Shown: positions 27,388-46,821 of the stretch, piece by piece
Numbering within the stretch: the first letter of the stretch is position 1
Layout: each line of letters begins with the position of its first letter
Source of the DNA: Candidatus Shapirobacteria bacterium
Lineage (GTDB): Bacteria > Patescibacteriota > Microgenomatia > UBA12405
Reading direction: 5' to 3'
Assembly: GCA_022837635.1 (NCBI GenBank)
Contig: JALHFY010000001.1
Span: 234,202 to 298,201, forward strand
Length of the DNA: 64,000 nt
The notes under the pieces: model-generated
Told to the model about the DNA's origin: nothing
What the model saw: the letters and a program-made list of their open reading frames with translations, nothing else
Databases searched by the model: none
Made by a program: the position numbers and the translations under genes

Positions 27388-28101
27388 TTGGTAGTGAAGA
27401 AAATAAAAAAATTATCCATTGTAGTGCCAGTTTATAACGAAGAAAAAACAATTGAAAAATCACTCGAGCGACTATTTAATGTAGATTTTGGCACAATTAA
27501 ATTGGAAGTGATAGTGGTTAATGACGGCTCTAAAGATAAGACATTACAAGTGTTAAATACTTTAAGAAAAAAATATCCTTTTAAGTTAATTAGTTATAAG
27601 AAGAATAGAGGGAAAAGTTATGCTCTGAGACAGGGTTTTACTAAAACGACAGGTGATGTAGTAACGGTGCAAGATGGCGATTTGGAATATGATCCCAGCG
27701 ATTTCAAAAAGATGTTAAAGAAAATGTCTCAAAAAGAAGTGAAGGTGGTCTATGGTTCGCGGAGGTTAAATAAGAATAATAAACAGTACTCAGGTTTGAG
27801 TTTTTATTTGGGAGGTTTGCTATTAACTGAGATGGTGAATGTTTTATATGGAGGCAAAATTACCGATGAGCCGACATGTTACAAAATGTTTGAAGGTGAT
27901 TTATTAAGAAGTATTCCGTTAAAGTCCAATCGATTTGAATTTTGTCCCGAGGTGACAGCTAAGGTTTTAAGGAAAGGGATTCCGATTTATGAAGTACCGA
28001 TTTCTTATCAACCCCGTCATGCGGGTGAGGGTAAAAAAATAAAATTAAGAGATTTTTTTGAAGCTGCCTCAACTTTAATTAAGTATAAATTTGTGGATTA
28101 A
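27388..28101 (+). CDS. GT2 polyprenyl-phosphate sugar synthase-like (DPM1/GtrB/ArnC-type)
   Basis: 237 aa soluble GT-A. LSIVVPVYNEEKTIEKSLERL...VIVVNDGSKDKT...VTVQDGDLEYDP (the DGD..YDP region is typical of DPM1-like enzymes). Confidence 0.7.
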   Translation: MVVKKIKKLSIVVPVYNEEKTIEKSLERLFNVDFGTIKLEVIVVNDGSKDKTLQVLNTLRKKYPFKLISYKKNRGKSYALRQGFTKTTGDVVTVQDGDLEYDPSDFKKMLKKMSQKEVKVVYGSRRLNKNNKQYSGLSFYLGGLLLTEMVNVLYGGKITDEPTCYKMFEGDLLRSIPLKSNRFEFCPEVTAKVLRKGIPIYEVPISYQPRHAGEGKKIKLRDFFEAASTLIKYKFVD

Positions 28102-30962: not shown

Positions 30963-31322
30963 ATGTCAATTGTAGGAGTTCAGTTAATCATCTTTGTATT
31001 TTCTTTTTTTATGTTGTACAACGTTTACTTATATTGGCGAAAGGGAGAAATAGGACTTCGAGGAGCGTTAATTTGGGTAATTATTTGGGGAGGACTTCTA
31101 ATAATTACATTTTTCCCAAAGTTTATTGAGCCATTAGTAAAAGAATTGTTTTTTGTGAGACTTTTTGATTTAGCGACTGTGGCGGCTTTGATTATTTTAG
31201 CTTATGTAATGTTTGAAAATCATGTAAGAATTAATAAACTTCAAAAACAAATATCGAAGATTGTTCAAAGAACAGCGGTTAAAAATGTATTAAAGAAGGT
31301 GAATGAGACAAAGAAAAAATGA
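30963..31322 (+). CDS. Small 3-TM membrane protein with basic coiled C-tail (DUF2304-like companion of DPM1-type GT2s; possible GtrA-like flippase role)
   Basis: 119 aa with three hydrophobic helices and a Lys-rich C-terminus. Immediately after a DPM1-like GT2, the position where DUF2304/GtrA-type proteins are found. Confidence 0.4.
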   Translation: MSIVGVQLIIFVFSFFMLYNVYLYWRKGEIGLRGALIWVIIWGGLLIITFFPKFIEPLVKELFFVRLFDLATVAALIILAYVMFENHVRINKLQKQISKIVQRTAVKNVLKKVNETKKK

Positions 31323-32136
31323 ATATGTAATTACTCCACCAAAGGGATTGGTAGATATTAATTTACCGGAGATTTGGCGTTATAAGGAATTACTATATAC
31401 TTTTACTTGGAGAGATATTAAAGTTCGCTATAAGCAAACAGTTTTAGGTATTGTCTGGGCAATATTTCAACCACTTTTTACTATGATTATTTTTACAGTT
31501 TTTTTTGGTAATTTAGCTAAAATTCCTTCAGATGGGGTTCCTTACCCAATTTTTGTTTATTCTGGCTTGTTGTTTTGGATATATTTTTCCAATTCTTTAA
31601 CAAATGCCAGTAATTGTATGGTGAATAATGAGGGAATAATTAAAAAAATTTATTTTCCGAGGTTATTATTGTCGATTAGTGCCATACTGACACCGGTTAT
31701 TGATTTTTGTTTTTCTTCTATAGTTTTTTTAGGGTTAATGATAGTTTTTAGGTTTGTACCTAATTTTTGGGGATTACTAATGGTGCCATTATTATTATTG
31801 ATTTCAATGGTGACTGCTTCTGGAATTGGCTTGTTTTTAACATCGGTAAATGTAAAATATCGAGATGTGCGTTATATTTTGCCGTTTTTTATTCAAATTT
31901 TAATGTTTATCACTCCAGTTATTTATCCTGTTAGTATAATTCCTGAGAACTATAAATGGTTGGCTTATTTTAATCCAATGACAGGTGTAATTAATTCAGC
32001 TAGGGTTTTGATTTTAGGTGGGGGAAATATTGATTGGGTGGGGATTTGTATTTCGATAATTGCGGCAATAATATATTTTATTTTAGGATTGATATATTTC
32101 AGAAAAACTGAAAGGTTTTTTGCGGATATCATTTAG
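31303..32136 (+). CDS. wzm: ABC-2 type polysaccharide/O-antigen export permease (Wzm/TagG-like)
   Basis: RYKQTVLGIVWAIFQPLFTMIIF ABC-2 signature, 6 TM, 277 aa. Confidence 0.8.
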   Translation: MRQRKNEYVITPPKGLVDINLPEIWRYKELLYTFTWRDIKVRYKQTVLGIVWAIFQPLFTMIIFTVFFGNLAKIPSDGVPYPIFVYSGLLFWIYFSNSLTNASNCMVNNEGIIKKIYFPRLLLSISAILTPVIDFCFSSIVFLGLMIVFRFVPNFWGLLMVPLLLLISMVTASGIGLFLTSVNVKYRDVRYILPFFIQILMFITPVIYPVSIIPENYKWLAYFNPMTGVINSARVLILGGGNIDWVGICISIIAAIIYFILGLIYFRKTERFFADII

Positions 32137-32141
32137 TTAAA

Positions 32142-33398
32142 ATGGCAAAACCAATAATAACAGTAGAAAATTTAAGTAAAAAATATGCTTTGGGTGAAAA
32201 GCAAAGTTTTTATACTTTACGCGATTCAATAAGTGGTTTTTTTGTTGGTAAAAAAAATAAAGAAGAGGAATTTTGGGCACTTAAAGATATTAATTTTGAA
32301 ATAAAACAAGGTGAATCAGTGGGAATAATTGGTCGAAATGGAGCGGGTAAAAGTACTTTACTAAAAATTTTATCACAAATTACTCCGCCTACTACGGGGA
32401 AAATTACAATGAGAGGTAGAGTTGCCTCTTTGTTGGAAGTGGGTACAGGTTTTCATCAAGAGTTGACAGGGAGAGAAAATATATTTTTGAATGGGGCAAT
32501 TTTGGGAATGTCGAGAGAAGAGGTAAAGAAGAAATTCGATGAAATTGTGGCGTTCTCTGAAATAGAGAAATTTTTAGATATGCCAGTAAAGCATTATTCT
32601 TCGGGAATGTATATGAGATTGGCTTTTGCAGTAGCGGCGCATTTAGAATCAGAGATTTTAATTGTAGATGAGGTATTGGCTGTAGGTGACGCTCAGTTTC
32701 AAAAAAAATGTTTGGGTAAAATGGATGAGGTAGCAAAGAAAGAAGGACGAACAGTTTTGTTTGTAAGTCATAATATGGGGGCTATAAAGAGCTTATGTTC
32801 TAGAAGTATGATTATTGAAAAAGGAAAAATAGAGCTAATTGGAGAGTCAGAGAAGGTTGTACGTCAGTATATAAATGAATCAAACAATTATTCAAAAAAT
32901 AATTCAATTCATTATGACAAGCTAGTATATATTGAAAATGTTGAAATTTTAAGTTCAGAGGGTTATCAGAAGTCTAGTTTTTTAACAACAGAAGATGTTC
33001 ATGTTAAAGTTAATTTTGTTGTTAAAGAGGCTCTGAAATTAGGAAATTATTGTGGGTTAATTATTTTGGATGAATTTCAAAATATATTGATAATGGCTTA
33101 TGATATTGACAGTAATAGTAAGTATTATAAATTTAGACCTCCTGGAAAATATGAGGTAACTTTTACTATAGGAAAAAATATTCTTAATGAACAGGTTGTG
33201 AATTTAAATGTAGTTTGTGGAATTCCTTTGAAATACAACAATAGTCCGTATAAAAATTTATATTTTGATTCTTGGACTGGAATTAGTTTCCGTTTATATA
33301 ACACTAATAGTTTTTCTAGGGATTATTTTGGAGGACAAAGATCTGGTGTTATGCTTTTAAAAATTAATAGTCAGGTTAAGTGTCGGAAAATCGAATAA
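32142..33398 (+). CDS. wzt: ABC transporter ATP-binding protein Wzt/TagH-like with C-terminal ~170 aa beta-rich extension (Wzt_C-type carbohydrate-binding domain candidate)
   Basis: Walker A GIIGRNGAGKSTLLKIL, signature YSSGMYMRLAFA, Walker B ILIVDEVLAVGD, H-loop VSHN. Residues ~245-418 form an extra domain absent from the second transporter ATPase at 46000-46821. Confidence 0.8.
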   Translation: MAKPIITVENLSKKYALGEKQSFYTLRDSISGFFVGKKNKEEEFWALKDINFEIKQGESVGIIGRNGAGKSTLLKILSQITPPTTGKITMRGRVASLLEVGTGFHQELTGRENIFLNGAILGMSREEVKKKFDEIVAFSEIEKFLDMPVKHYSSGMYMRLAFAVAAHLESEILIVDEVLAVGDAQFQKKCLGKMDEVAKKEGRTVLFVSHNMGAIKSLCSRSMIIEKGKIELIGESEKVVRQYINESNNYSKNNSIHYDKLVYIENVEILSSEGYQKSSFLTTEDVHVKVNFVVKEALKLGNYCGLIILDEFQNILIMAYDIDSNSKYYKFRPPGKYEVTFTIGKNILNEQVVNLNVVCGIPLKYNNSPYKNLYFDSWTGISFRLYNTNSFSRDYFGGQRSGVMLLKINSQVKCRKIE

Positions 33399-34822
33399 TG
33401 AAAAGAAAATACTTGATTATAATAGCGGGTTGGCATTTCAATTTGTCTGATTTTTATTTGAGTTTATTGGATATTTCAAAAAAAAATCAAGTTGATTTTT
33501 TTATCTCATCCCACAAAGATTTCTCGGAAATAGATAATAAAATTATGGAGTGTATTAAAAACATACCTAGATGTGAAATTGTGAGTTTTGAGAATGAAGG
33601 ATTTGATTGGGGAATATATTCCCAAGCGTTATCGTATTTAGGAGAAAGAATATTTGACTATGAGTATATTTGTTTTATGCACGATGATATTGAAATAAAG
33701 GATTCTAATTTTTTAAATATATTTTCGAAATATATAAGCGATAATAATTTCATGGTTTTGGGTAATTGTAAGAACTCTGTTAATCAAAATTTTACAAGAT
33801 CTCATCCACATGTAATACGTTGGTTGAAAAGTGATTATCACATAGTGTTAAAAAACAAAAAATGGAATACTGTTAGGGGAAGTTGTTTTATGGTTGTACC
33901 AGAAATATTTAAGAAAATAAAGGTTTTGCCATATAAAAAAGGAGATAATTCTGGATTTGGAAATTGGAGTGTTATTGCTTTTGGAGGTATTGTGACTGAT
34001 TTATATGGAAAAAATAGTATCGGCACAATAAGCAACAAACAATTAAAGTCTGATTATATTATTGAATATGAAAGAGGTTTTTCAAGTAAAAGTGTTCAGA
34101 GTGAAATAAGGGAAATCTCAAAAAATGTAAACTCTTTGCTTTATAGATTAAAAGAAGTTGGTTATTCGATTCGGAGATATTATGTGGATAAATTCTTTTT
34201 TGAAAACATTAAATATTTTAATAAAAATGATAGGATCTTGGACGTTGGTGGAAAAAAAATAAACAAGCGAGGATATTTTGATATTGAAAAATATCCTCTA
34301 AAGACTAGTTATTTAAATTTAGATAAATCGACAAAACCAGATTTGTTAGCTGATGCTGCAAATATTCCAACAAAAAATAATTTTTATGATGGAATAGTTT
34401 TGGGAGAAGTTATGGAGCATGTTTCAGAACCTGAAACTGTTTTAAGGGAATGTATCAGAGTACTTAAATCAAAGGGTAAAATTATTATTACTGTCCCTTT
34501 TATGTATCCAATTCATGCTGATCCTTATGATTATGGACGATATACCTTGACTTATTGGAAAAGAATGTTTGACAGGTGTGGTCTAAAGGTATTGGTTGTA
34601 ACCAATCATGGAACATACTTTGCGGTTTTAGCAAATATGTTTAAATTAGGAATTAATGAAATGTTTCAGAAACCGCAAAGATTATTAAGAAAAAAATTCT
34701 TAAACTCATTAATGATTATTGTTATAAAAATATTAATGTATTTTGATGATAAGTTTTCTAAATCGCGAAATTGGTTAATTTCAGGATCTACTACGGGTTA
34801 TGGTTTTGTATTAGAGAAATAG
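33380..34822 (+). CDS. Two-domain protein: N-terminal RgpF (rhamnan synthesis F)-like domain fused to C-terminal class I SAM methyltransferase
   Basis: N-terminus KYLIIIAGWHFNLSDFYLSLL..VDFFISSHK resembles the RgpF-family start (kiav.vHlyY.dl..e..yl...fdlyiTt). C-terminus ILDVGGKKIN..(motif I-like)..GIVLGEVMEHVSEPE..LKSKGKIIITVP (MT motifs). Overlaps the wzt stop by 19 nt. Confidence 0.55.
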   Translation: MSENRIMKRKYLIIIAGWHFNLSDFYLSLLDISKKNQVDFFISSHKDFSEIDNKIMECIKNIPRCEIVSFENEGFDWGIYSQALSYLGERIFDYEYICFMHDDIEIKDSNFLNIFSKYISDNNFMVLGNCKNSVNQNFTRSHPHVIRWLKSDYHIVLKNKKWNTVRGSCFMVVPEIFKKIKVLPYKKGDNSGFGNWSVIAFGGIVTDLYGKNSIGTISNKQLKSDYIIEYERGFSSKSVQSEIREISKNVNSLLYRLKEVGYSIRRYYVDKFFFENIKYFNKNDRILDVGGKKINKRGYFDIEKYPLKTSYLNLDKSTKPDLLADAANIPTKNNFYDGIVLGEVMEHVSEPETVLRECIRVLKSKGKIIITVPFMYPIHADPYDYGRYTLTYWKRMFDRCGLKVLVVTNHGTYFAVLANMFKLGINEMFQKPQRLLRKKFLNSLMIIVIKILMYFDDKFSKSRNWLISGSTTGYGFVLEK

Positions 34823-34848: not shown

Positions 34849-35910
34849 ATGAAATTTTTATCTAGAGACAATAGAAAAAATAATATAATAAAAATAGGTT
34901 GGGTGGTATATGAGTCCTGGGTTAATGGAGTTAGGTCTGTAAAATCTTTTAAGGATGTTGTATCAGAAATTAGGTGTAAAAATATTCTATTGGAATTGAA
35001 TAGACATAATAGATTTTTTAATGAGATTTACGATTCGAGTAAAAAATATGATTTGGTTGTTTTTGTAAAAGTTATGGATGAAGAATGTCAATTTGAAGTA
35101 AAAAAAATTAAAGAATATGGAGGGAAGGTGATATTTGATGCCAATGTGAATTATTTTGAGATTTGGGGGGATTATTTTATTGAAGGTACAAAACCAACTG
35201 CATTACAAAACAAAAATTCTATAAAAATGGCAAGTATTTGTGACTGTGTAATTGGAGATTCAGAATACATTACCAAGATTGCTTCAAAATATTCTAAGAA
35301 AACTGTTTGTATTCCAGATTCGGTTGATATGGCTTTGTATAGTGGTCAAGTTAGTTATCTAGATAAAAAAATGATTAGATTAATTTGGAGTGGTGTTAGC
35401 AAGAAATCCTTACATTTTTATGAGATAATTCCGGTTTTGTCTAAAATTTCAAAAGAGTTTAGTGTTCAATTAACTTTAGTTTCAGATAGGAAACCAGAGA
35501 TTTTTAATGAGATTTCACAAGTGATAAATACTAAATGGATTAAGTTTAGTCATAGAAAGTATATTTCCAAATTATTAGCATCAGATATTATTATTTCGCC
35601 TAAAAGATTAATAAATGGGTATGAATTAGGACATACTGAATACAAGATAACTCTTGGTATGGCGCTTGGTTTGCCTGCGATTGCTAGTCCTCAATTATCG
35701 TACGTTAATGCGTTACGATATGGTGGTGGTATTATTGCTTCAACTGAAACTGAATGGTATCTTGCATTAAGAAAACTTATATCTTCATCTATGCTTAGAG
35801 AAAAGATGGGAATTAAAGCTAAAAATACTGTGAAAAAATATTATAGTCTTACTATTATTCTTAAAAAATATGTTGATTTATTTAATGATTTATTGAGATA
35901 TGGAGAGTAG
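34849..35910 (+). CDS. Putative glycosyltransferase (GT-B-like C-terminal domain)
   Basis: 353 aa. C-terminal GMALGLPAIASPQLSYVNALRYGGGIIASTETEW resembles GT-B donor-binding helix regions. Weak. Confidence 0.35.
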   Translation: MKFLSRDNRKNNIIKIGWVVYESWVNGVRSVKSFKDVVSEIRCKNILLELNRHNRFFNEIYDSSKKYDLVVFVKVMDEECQFEVKKIKEYGGKVIFDANVNYFEIWGDYFIEGTKPTALQNKNSIKMASICDCVIGDSEYITKIASKYSKKTVCIPDSVDMALYSGQVSYLDKKMIRLIWSGVSKKSLHFYEIIPVLSKISKEFSVQLTLVSDRKPEIFNEISQVINTKWIKFSHRKYISKLLASDIIISPKRLINGYELGHTEYKITLGMALGLPAIASPQLSYVNALRYGGGIIASTETEWYLALRKLISSSMLREKMGIKAKNTVKKYYSLTIILKKYVDLFNDLLRYGE

Positions 35911-36850
35911 AATTTTTAAGTATTTTAATAGAAAATTATTAGGTGAAAAGATTTCATTTTTTCATGAGTTTAGACCAGCACCGTATGGTGGTTCAAATTC
36001 TTTTTTTATTGCTTTGAAAGGTTATCTTGAATCAAGAGGTATTTTAGTGGATGTTAATTTGGTAAAAAGAAATACTGAAGTGGTTCTACTTAACGCATTT
36101 TTATTTGATGAAAAAAAATTAGAAAATTATAAAAACCGGTATCCTGATATTAAAATTATTCATAGAATTGATGGCCCAGTAAGTGCTCATCGAGCGATAG
36201 AATTAGATATAGACAGACAGTTATTAGAGTTAAATACTAAATTTGCTGATAGAACAATTATTCAATCAGAATACAGTAAAAAAAAGAGTGAAGATTTAGG
36301 ATTATTTTTTAAAAATCCAGTTGTTATACATAATGCCGCAAACCCTTTATTTTTTAATCGAAATGATAAAAGTAAATTTAATAAAGATAAGGTTAAGATT
36401 ATTGCTTCAAGTTGGTCTGATAATAGAAAAAAAGGTGCTGAAGTATATAGATGGCTTGAGAATGAATTAGATTGGAGTGTATATGAATTTACTTTTGTAG
36501 GTAGATTACCAATTAAATTAAAAAGGGCAAAACATATTGATGCTTGCCCTCCTGAAGAATTGTCAAGATATCTTAAAAATAGCGACATATATATTACTGC
36601 TTCTGAAAATGATTCTTGTTCAAATTCATTAATTGAGGCATTAAGTTGTGGTTTACCAGCGATATATTTAAATTCTGGCGGTCATCCTGAAATTGTGAAA
36701 AATGCAGGTATTGGCTTTAGTAAAAATGAAGAGATTATAGGTGCTCTAGATAAGATTAGACAAAATTATTATTTTTACCAGAATAATATTGAGGTATTAG
36801 GAATGGAACAAGTTGCAAAAAAGTATTTAGATGTTATGTTTCAAGAGTGA
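35900..36850 (+). CDS. Glycosyltransferase, GT4-like
   Basis: C-terminal NSLIEALSCGLPAIYLNSGGHPEIVKNAGIGF (GT4 E-x7-E-like). Confidence 0.55.
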   Translation: MESRIFKYFNRKLLGEKISFFHEFRPAPYGGSNSFFIALKGYLESRGILVDVNLVKRNTEVVLLNAFLFDEKKLENYKNRYPDIKIIHRIDGPVSAHRAIELDIDRQLLELNTKFADRTIIQSEYSKKKSEDLGLFFKNPVVIHNAANPLFFNRNDKSKFNKDKVKIIASSWSDNRKKGAEVYRWLENELDWSVYEFTFVGRLPIKLKRAKHIDACPPEELSRYLKNSDIYITASENDSCSNSLIEALSCGLPAIYLNSGGHPEIVKNAGIGFSKNEEIIGALDKIRQNYYFYQNNIEVLGMEQVAKKYLDVMFQE

Positions 36851-37920
36851 TTTTAACTATTCTAAAAAAAATATATAGAGTATTTAATATTTTTGAGATT
36901 TTTCTAAAAAGAATTACTCTTGAGAAGAGAAGCAACTTTGTTTTATTTTTTGCAAATACCGAAACTAGGCCAGGGAGTGTTTACGGGGGTTGTGTTAAGT
37001 TGTTTCATTTAAGAGATAGTTTTGATATAGACAACTCACGATTTAATATTTTATACTTAGTAAGTAGCTGTCTTCCTGTGAATCCTTTATTTTGGATAAG
37101 AAAGGTGAAGTCGCGAGGGATTAAAACTATTTTAAATCAAAACGGTGTTGGTTATCCTGCTTGGGCTGGAAAAAATTATTGCAAAGTAAATAATGAACTT
37201 AAAAAAATAATTCATGCGTGTGATGGTGTGTTATATCAGAGTAAGTTTTGTAAAAGAAGTGCTGATAAATATCTAGGTGTTTTTAATGGTCCATATAAGA
37301 TAGTTTATAACTGTGTTGATGATAATTTATTTAAACCAGAAAATACGAAAAAGGATAAAGATTTAATTTTGCTTGTTATGGGTAGTCATCATTTTCGAGA
37401 GAGAGTTGTTTTACCAATTATGGTTTTAAGTAAATTGTTGGAATCGGGAGTTAAATCAAAACTAATTATTGGTGGAAGATTATTATGGCCTGATGCAAAG
37501 AATGATGTAAAAAAACTAGTTAATAAACTTAATTTGGGTAGTTCAGTTGTTGTGATGGGGTCATATACCCAGGAAGAAGCTGTAGTTTTATACAATAAGG
37601 CTCATATATTGATTCATCTTCAATACAATGATGCTTCTCCTACAGTTCCTATAGAAGCAATGTCTTGTGGTGTTCCAGTAATATGTAGTGATTCTGGTGG
37701 TTTACCTGAAATTGTGAAAGACGGGTGTGGAGAACTAATAAGAGTTAGACATAGTTATCAAAAAATGTATTACCCAAGTGTAAATAGTATTGTAAAATCG
37801 ATTCGTATAATTATGAAGTCTTATAGTAGGTATTGTGATAATTGTCGGAAGACGGTTCTTTCGGAGTTTTGTAAAGATAAGTGGATAAAGGAACATGAAG
37901 AATTTTTTGATAAATTATAA
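36847..37920 (+). CDS. Glycosyltransferase family 4
   Basis: PIEAMSCGVPVICSDSGGLPEIVKDGCGELI, 357 aa. Confidence 0.7.
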   Translation: MILTILKKIYRVFNIFEIFLKRITLEKRSNFVLFFANTETRPGSVYGGCVKLFHLRDSFDIDNSRFNILYLVSSCLPVNPLFWIRKVKSRGIKTILNQNGVGYPAWAGKNYCKVNNELKKIIHACDGVLYQSKFCKRSADKYLGVFNGPYKIVYNCVDDNLFKPENTKKDKDLILLVMGSHHFRERVVLPIMVLSKLLESGVKSKLIIGGRLLWPDAKNDVKKLVNKLNLGSSVVVMGSYTQEEAVVLYNKAHILIHLQYNDASPTVPIEAMSCGVPVICSDSGGLPEIVKDGCGELIRVRHSYQKMYYPSVNSIVKSIRIIMKSYSRYCDNCRKTVLSEFCKDKWIKEHEEFFDKL

Positions 37921-37931
37921 GATGTACATTT

Positions 37932-38960
37932 ATGAAGAATACTATGGTAACAGTTTTAATGCCTGTTTATAACGGTGAGAGGTACTTAAAAGAGTCTATT
38001 GAAAGTATATTAAGTCAAACATATAAGAATTTTGAATTTTTAATTATTGATGATGGTTCAACTGATAATAGTTCAAATATTATTGATTCATTTAATGATA
38101 AGCGTATTCGTAAAATATCAAACAAAGTAAATCTTGGACTAGTGAAAAGTTTAAATAAAGGTCTAAGACTTGCGTGTGGCAAATATATTGTCCGAATGGA
38201 TAGTGATGATTTGAGTGAGAAAAATAGAATTGAGAAACAGGTTGAATATATGGAAAATAATCTTGATGTTGCTGTTTTGGGAAGTGCCGTAAGGTTGATT
38301 GATGAAAATAACCAATTGGGTAGAAATATAGTTTATCCGCTTCGATATATTGATATTCTTTGGAGTTTATACTTTGGATCACCACTAGCACACCCATCTG
38401 TTATTATGAGAAGTTCGGTTGTGAAGAAAATTGGTGGTTATGGTTCTACTAAAATAGCAACAAATAGGGAAAAATATTCTGTAGAAGATTTTGATTTGTG
38501 GTTTAGATTATCAAAAGTATCTAAATTAATTAATTTAGATACTTGTTTATTAAAATTGAGAAAACATAATAAAAATTTAACAGTTGTAAATAGAGATGAG
38601 CACTTAACTAATACAGGGCTCATTATCAAACATAACTTAATGCATGATCTTGGAATCAATATAAGTGAAGAGATGGCGATAGGATTAACTTTATTGAGAA
38701 TGGATAATAAATTTGATTATATTAAATTGATAGAATTAGTTAATAATATATATAAAAAATTTATTAACGCTAGAAAGAATATGATGACAAAAGACGACAT
38801 AAATATTATTAAAGATAATAAAACCTCGAAGATTATTTTAATAGGTTTTAATACTAATAATATTTTTATTGTTTTTAAGATTATTTTTATTGAATTTTTA
38901 AAAAATCCGACTTATTTATACAGAAAATTGTTAAGTAAAATATTCCATGAAAGTACTTAG
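37932..38960 (+). CDS. Glycosyltransferase family 2
   Basis: VTVLMPVYNGERYLKESIESILSQTYKNFEFLIIDDGSTDNS...VRMDSDDL (DxD). Confidence 0.8.
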   Translation: MKNTMVTVLMPVYNGERYLKESIESILSQTYKNFEFLIIDDGSTDNSSNIIDSFNDKRIRKISNKVNLGLVKSLNKGLRLACGKYIVRMDSDDLSEKNRIEKQVEYMENNLDVAVLGSAVRLIDENNQLGRNIVYPLRYIDILWSLYFGSPLAHPSVIMRSSVVKKIGGYGSTKIATNREKYSVEDFDLWFRLSKVSKLINLDTCLLKLRKHNKNLTVVNRDEHLTNTGLIIKHNLMHDLGINISEEMAIGLTLLRMDNKFDYIKLIELVNNIYKKFINARKNMMTKDDINIIKDNKTSKIILIGFNTNNIFIVFKIIFIEFLKNPTYLYRKLLSKIFHEST

Positions 38961-40161
38961 TGTGAATACTACAAAAGTTGGGGGGGCGGCAGTAGTGGCT
39001 AGAAGACTAAATCAGGTATTTAAGAGTGGTGGAATTAATTTAGAAACAGTAACTTTGAATGATACCGTTTTTGATAAATTAATTGGTATTTTGAGTGTTA
39101 TGGAACAAAAATTTTGGCCAATGCTGATGAAAACGAAGAACATTGTTTATCACTCCCCTGCCATGTTCTCTCGTGGAATTGAAGATTATCTCAGATTGTT
39201 TAATCCAGATATTGTCCATTTACATTGGATAAATAAAGGATTAATGAAACCAGAAGATTTATTAACAATAAGAAAGCCAATTATTTGGACAATGCATGAT
39301 ATGTGGCCATTTTGTGGAGCAGAGCATCATACTAATGAGAGTAGATTTATTAATGGTTATTCTAAAAATAATAGGCCAAAAAATGAAAGTGGAATTGACA
39401 TAAATAGATTTGTCTGGATGAGGAAGGTTAGTGTATATAAAGAATTAAACGATATTATTTTTATTTGTCCGAGCTTATGGTTATACAATTTAGCAAAAAA
39501 GAGTTTTCTTTTGAAAGATAAAAGAGTCCAATATATACCTAATGGTGTTGATTCAAAAGTGTTTTTTTCTATTAATAAGAATATGGCAAAAATTTCTTTA
39601 GGTTTACCAAAAAATAAGAAAATATTACTTTTAGGTTCTGCTTTTATTGACGGAGATAGAAATAAACAAAATGATGTTTTTCTTAAAATATTAGAGTATG
39701 TAAAGGATTTAAAAAATGATTTTATGGTAATAACTTTGGGTTCTGGTGATACATCTAGTTTTAATAAGGTGTTTAGAGAACTTGGAGTTAGAGTAAAACA
39801 TTTTGGTTTCATAAGTAAAGAGAAGGTATTGAATAAAATTTATAATGCTTCGGACATATTTTTAATGTTTTCAAGACATGAAAATATGCCTACCATGTTG
39901 ATTGAGTCGATGGCTTGCGGAACTCCTGCAATTGCGTTTTCAATTGGCGGTATTCCAGAGATTATTGAAAGTGATAGGTATGGATACTTAATCAAACCTT
40001 TTGATTATATTGAGTATGGGAAAAAACTCCGAAAGTTCATTTTAGGTGATAATCTATTTGATAGAAAATTCATTACTAAAAGTATAATGAAAAAATACGA
40101 TATTGAAAAAACAAAAAAACTATATCTTAAAGTTTTTGATTCTCTAGTAAAAAGAAATTAG
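38947..40161 (+). CDS. Glycosyltransferase family 4
   Basis: ENMPTMLIESMACGTPAIAFSIGGIPEIIESDRYGYLI. Last gene of the long plus-strand run. Confidence 0.7.
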   Translation: MKVLSVNTTKVGGAAVVARRLNQVFKSGGINLETVTLNDTVFDKLIGILSVMEQKFWPMLMKTKNIVYHSPAMFSRGIEDYLRLFNPDIVHLHWINKGLMKPEDLLTIRKPIIWTMHDMWPFCGAEHHTNESRFINGYSKNNRPKNESGIDINRFVWMRKVSVYKELNDIIFICPSLWLYNLAKKSFLLKDKRVQYIPNGVDSKVFFSINKNMAKISLGLPKNKKILLLGSAFIDGDRNKQNDVFLKILEYVKDLKNDFMVITLGSGDTSSFNKVFRELGVRVKHFGFISKEKVLNKIYNASDIFLMFSRHENMPTMLIESMACGTPAIAFSIGGIPEIIESDRYGYLIKPFDYIEYGKKLRKFILGDNLFDRKFITKSIMKKYDIEKTKKLYLKVFDSLVKRN

Positions 40162-45101: not shown

Positions 45102-46016
45102 TTGTTAAGATATGATAACAATAATATGATTAAGAGAATATATCTTGAAGATCATAATCAGGTATTGGAGGGTATTCGGAATAGTTTTGATGTTGTAGAT
45201 AATTGGATGGAGGCAGAAGCGGTGGTGGTATGGCAGGATATTCGAGGCGAGTTGGTTCAAACTGTAGCGAATGCTAACTTATTAGGAATACCAACAATAG
45301 TAATGCAACATGGTCTTCGAGCAAGTCGAGAATATTCTAGTGATTTTGGAAAAGTATTGTTAGCAAAAAAAATTATGGTCTGGGGACCAAAAGATAAAGA
45401 AAGAGTAATGAGTGGTGGAGTTGAGCCAGAGAGAATTGAAGTAACAGGAACAATAATTTTTGATTCACTAAAGACGGTTGAAACACATGAAGAAAAAAAT
45501 GTTTTATTTGTGCCTTTACATTGGGATAAAGAAATTAGAGAAAATTTTGAGGTGGCTGAGAAATTAGCTTTAATTAAAGGAATTAATGTTCGAACAAAAT
45601 TGATTGAAGGTCAAAGAAAGAATCATTATCAAAATGTAATTAGAAGTAATCGGGATAAAGTAGGACATCTGGAGATTATTAGTGAGATTTTAAGAACTAC
45701 TGATTTGGTAGTTAGTTTAAGTGAAAGTACTTTGGAATTTATGGCCTATTATTTAGATATACCTGTAATTACTGTGAATAATTGGAAACCAAAATATTTT
45801 TTGGATACTTATATTGAAAGTATTAATAAATACTTTAGTGGTGCGAACATAGAAACAAATTTAGATGATTTAGAAAAAACAATTTTTTGGGTATTGAATA
45901 ATAGACAGATCAAATCCAAAGAAAGGAAAAAAGCTTTGTACGAGGAGGCAGGGATTGGTTTTAGGAAAATGAATGCGAGAAAAAAGATAATTGAGGTAAT
46001 TAGAAACTTGGGTTAG
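45102..46016 (+). CDS. Hypothetical protein, possible GT-B-fold polysaccharide biosynthesis enzyme
   Basis: 304 aa. Called with a TTG start at 45102 (alternative ATG at 45123: MIKRIYLED...). No confident motif. Weak resemblance to surface-carbohydrate biosynthesis / glycerophosphotransferase-like GT-B proteins. Confidence 0.25.
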   Translation: MLRYDNNNMIKRIYLEDHNQVLEGIRNSFDVVDNWMEAEAVVVWQDIRGELVQTVANANLLGIPTIVMQHGLRASREYSSDFGKVLLAKKIMVWGPKDKERVMSGGVEPERIEVTGTIIFDSLKTVETHEEKNVLFVPLHWDKEIRENFEVAEKLALIKGINVRTKLIEGQRKNHYQNVIRSNRDKVGHLEIISEILRTTDLVVSLSESTLEFMAYYLDIPVITVNNWKPKYFLDTYIESINKYFSGANIETNLDDLEKTIFWVLNNRQIKSKERKKALYEEAGIGFRKMNARKKIIEVIRNLG

Positions 46017-46821
46017 TTTTTTCCTTGAGGTATTGTTGACAAATTTGAATAGGTGAACCATCAGCGATGAGTTTTGAGTGACTAATTAGAAGACAGCGAG
46101 AGCAGAATTTGATAACAGTATCAAGATCATGAGAGACGTAGAGAATAGTTACCCCATTCTTTTTGAATTCTTCCATTTTTTGGAAACATTTTTGTTGAAA
46201 ATTTGGGTCGCCAACAGCGAGAATTTCATCAATAATGAGAATATCGGGATGGGTATGAATGGCGACAGAAAAGCCAAGTCGCATGTACATACCTGAAGAA
46301 AAGAATTTAATTGGCTGATCAATAAATTCCTCTAATTCTGAAAATTTAACAATACTATTAAAATTGTTTTCTATTTCTTTTTGGCTTAGGCCAAGAATGG
46401 CACCGTTTAGGAAGATATTTTCTCGAGCGGTGAGCTCAGGGTGAAAACCAGCACCTAATTCAATTAAAGGAGAGATGCGGCCATTAACATAAACCTTTCC
46501 CTTAGTGGGAGCAGTAACTCCAGCAATAAGTTTTAGAATAGTTGATTTACCACTACCATTTGGACCGATAATCCCGAGAGTTTCCCCACTCTTAACCTTA
46601 AAAGAAATGTTGTCGAGAGCAATGAAATTATTTTTTGTTTGTTCGCCAAGAAAGAGAGCTGGTAAAAATTCCTTAAATGTTTTTTGTTTTTGAAGAGAAA
46701 ATTTTTTGGTTAAATTAGTGAATTTAATGACGGTGTTATTCATATTAAACAATGTCGGCAAAGGTGTTTTCACGCTGCTTAAAATATAGCAAGCCGACAG
46801 ATAAGGTAATAAAAGAAACAA
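46000..46821 (-). CDS. ABC transporter ATP-binding protein (Wzt/TagH-like, no C-terminal extension)
   Basis: Walker A GIIGPNGSGKSTILKLIAG, signature FSSGMYMRLGFSVA, Walker B ILIIDEILAVGD. 273 aa. Confidence 0.8.
   Translation of the reverse strand: MFLLLPYLSACYILSSVKTPLPTLFNMNNTVIKFTNLTKKFSLQKQKTFKEFLPALFLGEQTKNNFIALDNISFKVKSGETLGIIGPNGSGKSTILKLIAGVTAPTKGKVYVNGRISPLIELGAGFHPELTARENIFLNGAILGLSQKEIENNFNSIVKFSELEEFIDQPIKFFSSGMYMRLGFSVAIHTHPDILIIDEILAVGDPNFQQKCFQKMEEFKKNGVTILYVSHDLDTVIKFCSRCLLISHSKLIADGSPIQICQQYLKEKTNPSF

Follow-up and report, generated by a model that had tools for sequence, protein, structure and literature searches.

Genes of the export locus

The analysed window is a stretch of DNA of 64,000 nucleotides, in which a permease gene and an ATPase gene of a glycan exporter are followed, on the same strand, by a gene for a two-domain fusion enzyme and by a run of glycosyltransferase genes. 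The features were as follows:

31303..32136, + strand: wzm, ABC-2 type permease of a glycan exporter, 277 aa (PF01061, ABC2_membrane, E 4.9e-23)
32142..32873, + strand: wzt, nucleotide-binding domain, residues 1-244 (PF00005, ABC_tran, E 1e-22)
32874..33398, + strand: wzt, C-terminal carbohydrate-binding domain of a divergent Wzt_C type, residues 245-418 plus stop codon (BLASTP, profile and fold)
33398..34093, + strand: GT-A-fold, GT2-like N-domain of the fusion enzyme, residues 1-232 of a 474-aa product (predicted fold and motifs)
34094..34822, + strand: linker and class I SAM-dependent methyltransferase domain of the fusion enzyme (residues about 250-474) plus stop codon (PF08241)
34849..40161, + strand: five co-directional glycosyltransferase genes, i.e. 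weak GT4-like, GT4, GT4, GT2 and GT4 (Pfam matches)
46000-46821, - strand: second ATPase, at most 273 aa

The exporter proposed by the sequence-only reading was confirmed. An ABC-2 permease gene lies beside a gene whose nucleotide-binding domain (NBD) carries all ABC motifs and is nearest to NBDs of the Wzt/TagH type, and the Pfam matches of both products are strong and beyond chance. The top NCBIfam matches of the wzm product were galactan Wzm/RfbD and KpsM permeases, and a DUF2304 gene upstream of wzm overlaps it by 20 nt. Within the 418-aa product of wzt (32142-33398), a Walker A motif (GRNGAGKST, residues 64-72), signature motif (YSSGM, 152-156), Walker B motif (ILIVDE, 172-177) and H-loop (FVSHN, 207-211) were located, and the best solved relative in the PDB was full-length Wzt of Aquifex aeolicus (E 6e-69). 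These motifs are followed by an extension of about 174 aa that is predicted to be all-beta, a beta-rich extension having been noted earlier; the second ATPase lacks such an extension, ABC_tran being its only domain. The nearest named homologues of Wzt came from Shapirobacteria, Microgenomates, Berkelbacteria and Patescibacteria, and these names, together with DUF4012 and a longest contig of 534 kb, point to the Candidate Phyla Radiation (CPR).

The gene for the fusion enzyme overlaps wzt, the extent of the overlap being 19 nt for a GTG start at 33380 or 1 nt for an ATG start at 33398 (i.e. TAATG). The ATG is the most likely start; it was picked by the gene callers and is also where homologues begin (MKKYLIII). 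The TAATG overlap couples translation of wzt and the fusion gene, and all three genes, wzm included, are genuine and closely coupled. The five downstream glycosyltransferase genes likewise overlap or are separated by short gaps; they are candidates for the polymerising and adaptor functions of the wzm-wzt operon. A priming phosphoglycosyl transferase (WbaP-like) was not found among the window ORFs scanned, a set comprising all but a few short ORFs, and the sole Wzy_C-like gene in the window is sub-threshold and lies about 15 kb upstream. At least four other methyltransferase genes are present in the window (at 28101, 50277, 52103 and 52764), so there is more than one candidate for the enzyme that forms the cap.

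A carbohydrate-binding domain on Wzt

The sequence-only reading had likened the extension to Wzt_C (PF14524). Searched directly, residues 245-418 scored below the gathering score of this Pfam family (30.4 bits), the whole protein reaching 21.2 bits and the domain on its own 23.4 bits (E 3e-4 to 7e-5), and the family relationship was instead established through relatives. BLASTP matched the extension to C-domains from Wzt proteins with PF14524, at E values of 1e-28 to 1e-9, all 19 of the C-domain relatives matched Wzt_C (best E 1.1e-14), and a profile built from these 19 sequences matched the A. aeolicus Wzt carbohydrate-binding domain (CBD; 6o14/8dky) with an E value of about 1e-6 (8e-7). This homology link was obtained solely via the full-length Wzt matches and the profile: a word-indexed search for homologues that used the CBD alone as query gave no matches, and phmmer with the same query found no relevant matches in the PDB.

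Structure prediction, for which a jelly-roll had been anticipated, bore out the assignment. The AlphaFold (AF2) model of the extension is an all-beta sandwich of high confidence (pLDDT 85, pTM 0.82), placing a jelly-roll fold directly C-terminal to the NBD from residue 245. In a Foldseek comparison with the PDB, the best 17 matches were all Wzt CBDs (TM 0.51-0.69) and derived from three species, namely A. aeolicus (with 3-O-methyl-mannose bound), R. terrigena O12 and E. coli O9a (2r5o). Because the relatives all match Wzt_C, the profile matches the Aquifex domain and the 17 best fold matches are Wzt CBDs, the extension is a true Wzt carbohydrate-binding domain despite its sub-cut-off Pfam score, on the basis of transitive and profile homology and of the predicted fold.

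Domains of the fusion enzyme

The C-terminal half of the fusion enzyme is a class I SAM-dependent methyltransferase, as previously read. It scored 40.5 bits against PF08241 (cut-off 21.2) and has a Rossmann-like fold with a glycine-rich motif I (LDVGG, 34238-34252) and a helical insert before the last strand. An 'alternative' methyltransferase, fused to N-domains elsewhere, had no specific counterpart in the window.

The N-domain was compared by fold, its structure model containing three low-confidence stretches. Its matches were nucleotide-sugar glycosyltransferases (GlfT2, COLGALT1) and not kinases. Like GT2 enzymes such as GlfT2, the N-domain has a Rossmann-like GT-A fold in which an acidic pair follows strand 4 and aligns on the GT2 DxD motif; this invariant DD lies at 33683-33688 and an NxGxDWG motif at 33587-33613. 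The N-domain is thus related to glycan synthesis, as had been supposed, through a GT-A/GT2-like glycosyltransferase fold. The specific label 'RgpF-like' fared poorly: RgpF (PF05045) gave no match to the window protein even at E values up to 10, and support from relatives was marginal, with sub-threshold matches in three of nine close N-domain relatives (best E 0.0014, 16.6 bits against 25, profile positions 287-369) and a match in one of 70 members of the wider family (5e-4). Pfam GT2 (PF00535) was also below threshold (14.9-16.3 bits against a gathering score of 23.3, E 0.01-0.026). A profile of the N-domain gave a best E value of only 2.1 against PDB sequences, at the DxD region of a galactofuranosyltransferase.

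The N-domain stands apart from the GT2 and RgpF Pfam families as a small family of its own, with distinctive motifs (GWH, SSHK, NxGxDWG, HDD, GN, VRGS, GNW and ExxRG). This family has no Pfam model and is rare, a set of 1.84 billion proteins containing 106 representatives at 50% identity; no characterised member was found. Direct kinship with the GT2-annotated N-domains of another set of fusions ('group B') was considered but not supported (non-significant hhalign probability of 0.1% with the nine-sequence alignment, only P 0.004 with the 70-sequence family), and co-alignment of the two types of N-domain by MAFFT should not be taken as a sign of homology.

Terminators of the WbdD/WbbB type combine a coiled-coil ruler with a kinase or Kdo-transferase module. 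Pfam identified neither a kinase nor a Kdo-transferase domain in the fusion protein, and it contains neither a coiled-coil ruler nor a membrane anchor, the longest predicted helix being 25 residues and the top 19-residue hydropathy 1.44. A tentative proposal, to which we give clearly less than even credence, is that the N-domain of about 230 aa represents a new, rare glycosyltransferase family, many members of which carry a fused class I methyltransferase while several others have one encoded next door, and that the family would constitute a compact, coiled-coil-free 'add-and-methylate' terminator for ABC-exported glycans, shared horizontally among probable CPR bacteria, Moduliflexus, Desulfovibrionaceae and DPANN archaea.

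Proposed capped-glycan export and comparison with known systems

The best reading of the locus, which we regard as somewhat probable, is cap-and-sense export, in which a capped glycan leaves the cell by an ABC-transporter-dependent route; domain identities, folds, gene coupling, synteny and precedents all support it. The downstream glycosyltransferases would assemble a polyprenol-linked polysaccharide in the cytoplasm, and chain growth would be ended by the 474-aa bifunctional enzyme, the GT-A domain of which probably adds a terminal sugar while the SAM-dependent methyltransferase domain would O-methylate the non-reducing end. The methylated terminus would then be recognised by the beta-sandwich CBD of the Wzt ATPase, such that only finished chains are handed to the Wzm channel for ATP-driven export. 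Inferred points in this reading are the role of the methyl group as terminal cap, catalytic activity of the GT-A domain and its addition of the sugar that is capped, and recognition of this cap by the CBD. The fusion protein lacks a coiled-coil ruler, so control of chain length would be stochastic or depend on the stoichiometry of the enzymes.

Gene neighbourhoods of relatives bear on whether this enzyme terminates chains. Gene order conserved in unrelated organisms ties the Wzt CBD to the N-domain module and to methyltransferases. In three unrelated loci (L007; L011, from Moduliflexus; and L014, from Desulfovibrionaceae), a gene for a protein of the N-domain family follows Wzm-Wzt(Wzt_C) immediately or lies close to it, and the window-type methyltransferase has a gene of its own next door. 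Each of the two closest relatives of Wzt and its CBD is followed immediately by a stand-alone methyltransferase gene; these methyltransferases were considered as orthologues of that in the fusion and found not to be orthologous. An alternative, which we judge less probable, is that the GT-A/methyltransferase enzyme decorates the glycan, either by adding a methylated side-branch or by methylating internal residues of the repeat unit, and that the CBD reads something else, for instance a different cap or the backbone of the polymer. Members of the N-domain family also adjoin Wzx flippases (L005 and L008), where capping is not used and a terminator role makes no sense, so chain termination cannot be the sole role of the module. 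Decoration would also fit the several further methyltransferases in the window and the lack of co-variation between CBD subtype and N-domain module, the CBDs in loci with the module being of mixed subtypes and only that of L011 matching the window CBD profile. Against this explanation stand the tight coupling of wzt to the fusion gene, the repeated occurrence of a methyltransferase or N-domain module right after a CBD-bearing wzt in six other loci, and a gene arrangement that matches characterised capped systems.

It is improbable that the CBD is vestigial or structural, serving only dimerisation or regulation of the ATPase while uncapped chains are exported. The score below the Wzt_C cut-off and the identity of only 11-20% to solved CBDs would suit such a role; however, the fold is predicted with confidence and a matching C-domain is kept, at 21-34% identity and with near-invariant D, R, G, Y and G positions, in Wzt proteins that are 49-57% identical overall. 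Moreover, transporters of capped systems that lack the CBD or are impaired in cap binding were reported to be export-defective in vivo (PMC9445017). Least probable is transfer by the N-domain of a phosphate-containing or other non-sugar group that is then methylated, giving a WbdD-like methyl-phosphate cap made by unrelated enzymes: one and the same methyl-phosphate cap is made by methyltransferase-kinase pairs of differing sequence and predicted structure (PMC11231755) and the N-domain family lacks a characterised member, but the fold matches nucleotide-sugar glycosyltransferases and not kinases, and the DD pair is aligned with the GT2 DxD motif.

Overall, the interpretation of the locus as a system for capping and cap sensing is partly supported. 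If it is true, glycan export is subject to cap-dependent quality control also in an organism of small genome and low G+C, which probably belongs to the CPR, the surface glycans of which are, to our knowledge, essentially uncharacterised. The fusion enzyme would then extend the known terminators (WbdD, WbbB, the K. pneumoniae O4/O7 enzymes and WsaE) by a new architecture, in which an unclassified GT-A domain is joined to a methyltransferase and there is no molecular ruler. Together, the CBD of 174 aa and the enzyme of 474 aa would also be a small, testable pair usable for studies of methyl-sugar recognition or for engineering chain-length-controlled glycans.

The sequence-only reading had claimed novelty both for the lineage and for a non-WbdD capping enzyme; the make-up of the enzyme and the probable host lineage are indeed new, whilst the claim was otherwise overstated, being preceded by Geobacillus (PMC2943079) and Aquifex (PMC9445017). 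The design is already known from these two and from E. coli, only the make-up and the lineage being new, and the logic of capping and sensing is well established; one of the known cases, with overlapping wzm-wzt-wsaE genes, comes from a monoderm. The general model is unchanged, as it already predicts such systems in Gram-positive and Gram-negative lineages.

The WbdD-Wzt systems of E. coli O9a and K. pneumoniae O3 share the proposed logic, a terminal methyl-containing cap being read by the C-terminal domain of Wzt. The kinase-methyltransferase WbdD possesses a membrane-binding helix as well as a long coiled-coil ruler, whereas the fusion protein has no kinase domain, coiled coil or strongly hydrophobic segment. 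The WzmWzt transporter of A. aeolicus (PDB 6o14, 8dky, 7k2t and 8dku) is the best solved relative of both Wzt and, by profile and fold (E 1.4e-6 for the latter), its CBD. The Aquifex CBD has been solved and binds a 3-O-methyl sugar cap (PMC9445017), the pocket residues in Aquifex itself being Leu300, Thr346, Ala348 and Trp362. Identity between the two CBDs is only 18-20%, and Aquifex is a diderm that exports an LPS O antigen.

In the S-layer glycan cluster of Geobacillus stearothermophilus NRS 2004/3a, wzm, wzt and wsaE have overlapping stop and start codons; WsaE, with a methyltransferase and two rhamnosyltransferase domains, makes a 2-O-methyl-rhamnose cap, and Wzt was predicted to bind the methylated glycan end (PMC2943079). 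Shared with this system are a monoderm-type organism, an ABC-transporter-dependent glycan, a glycan cluster lower in G+C than the rest of the genome, and the succession of wzm, wzt and a multidomain gene with overlapping codons. A WbaP-like primer gene, for which the window ORFs were scanned without a match, is a point of difference. As in WsaE, glycosyltransferase and methyltransferase domains occur in one polypeptide encoded directly after wzt, an architecture compared here with the published description of WsaE; the order and number of domains differ, being GT-A then methyltransferase within 474 aa as opposed to methyltransferase-glycosyltransferase-glycosyltransferase in WsaE.

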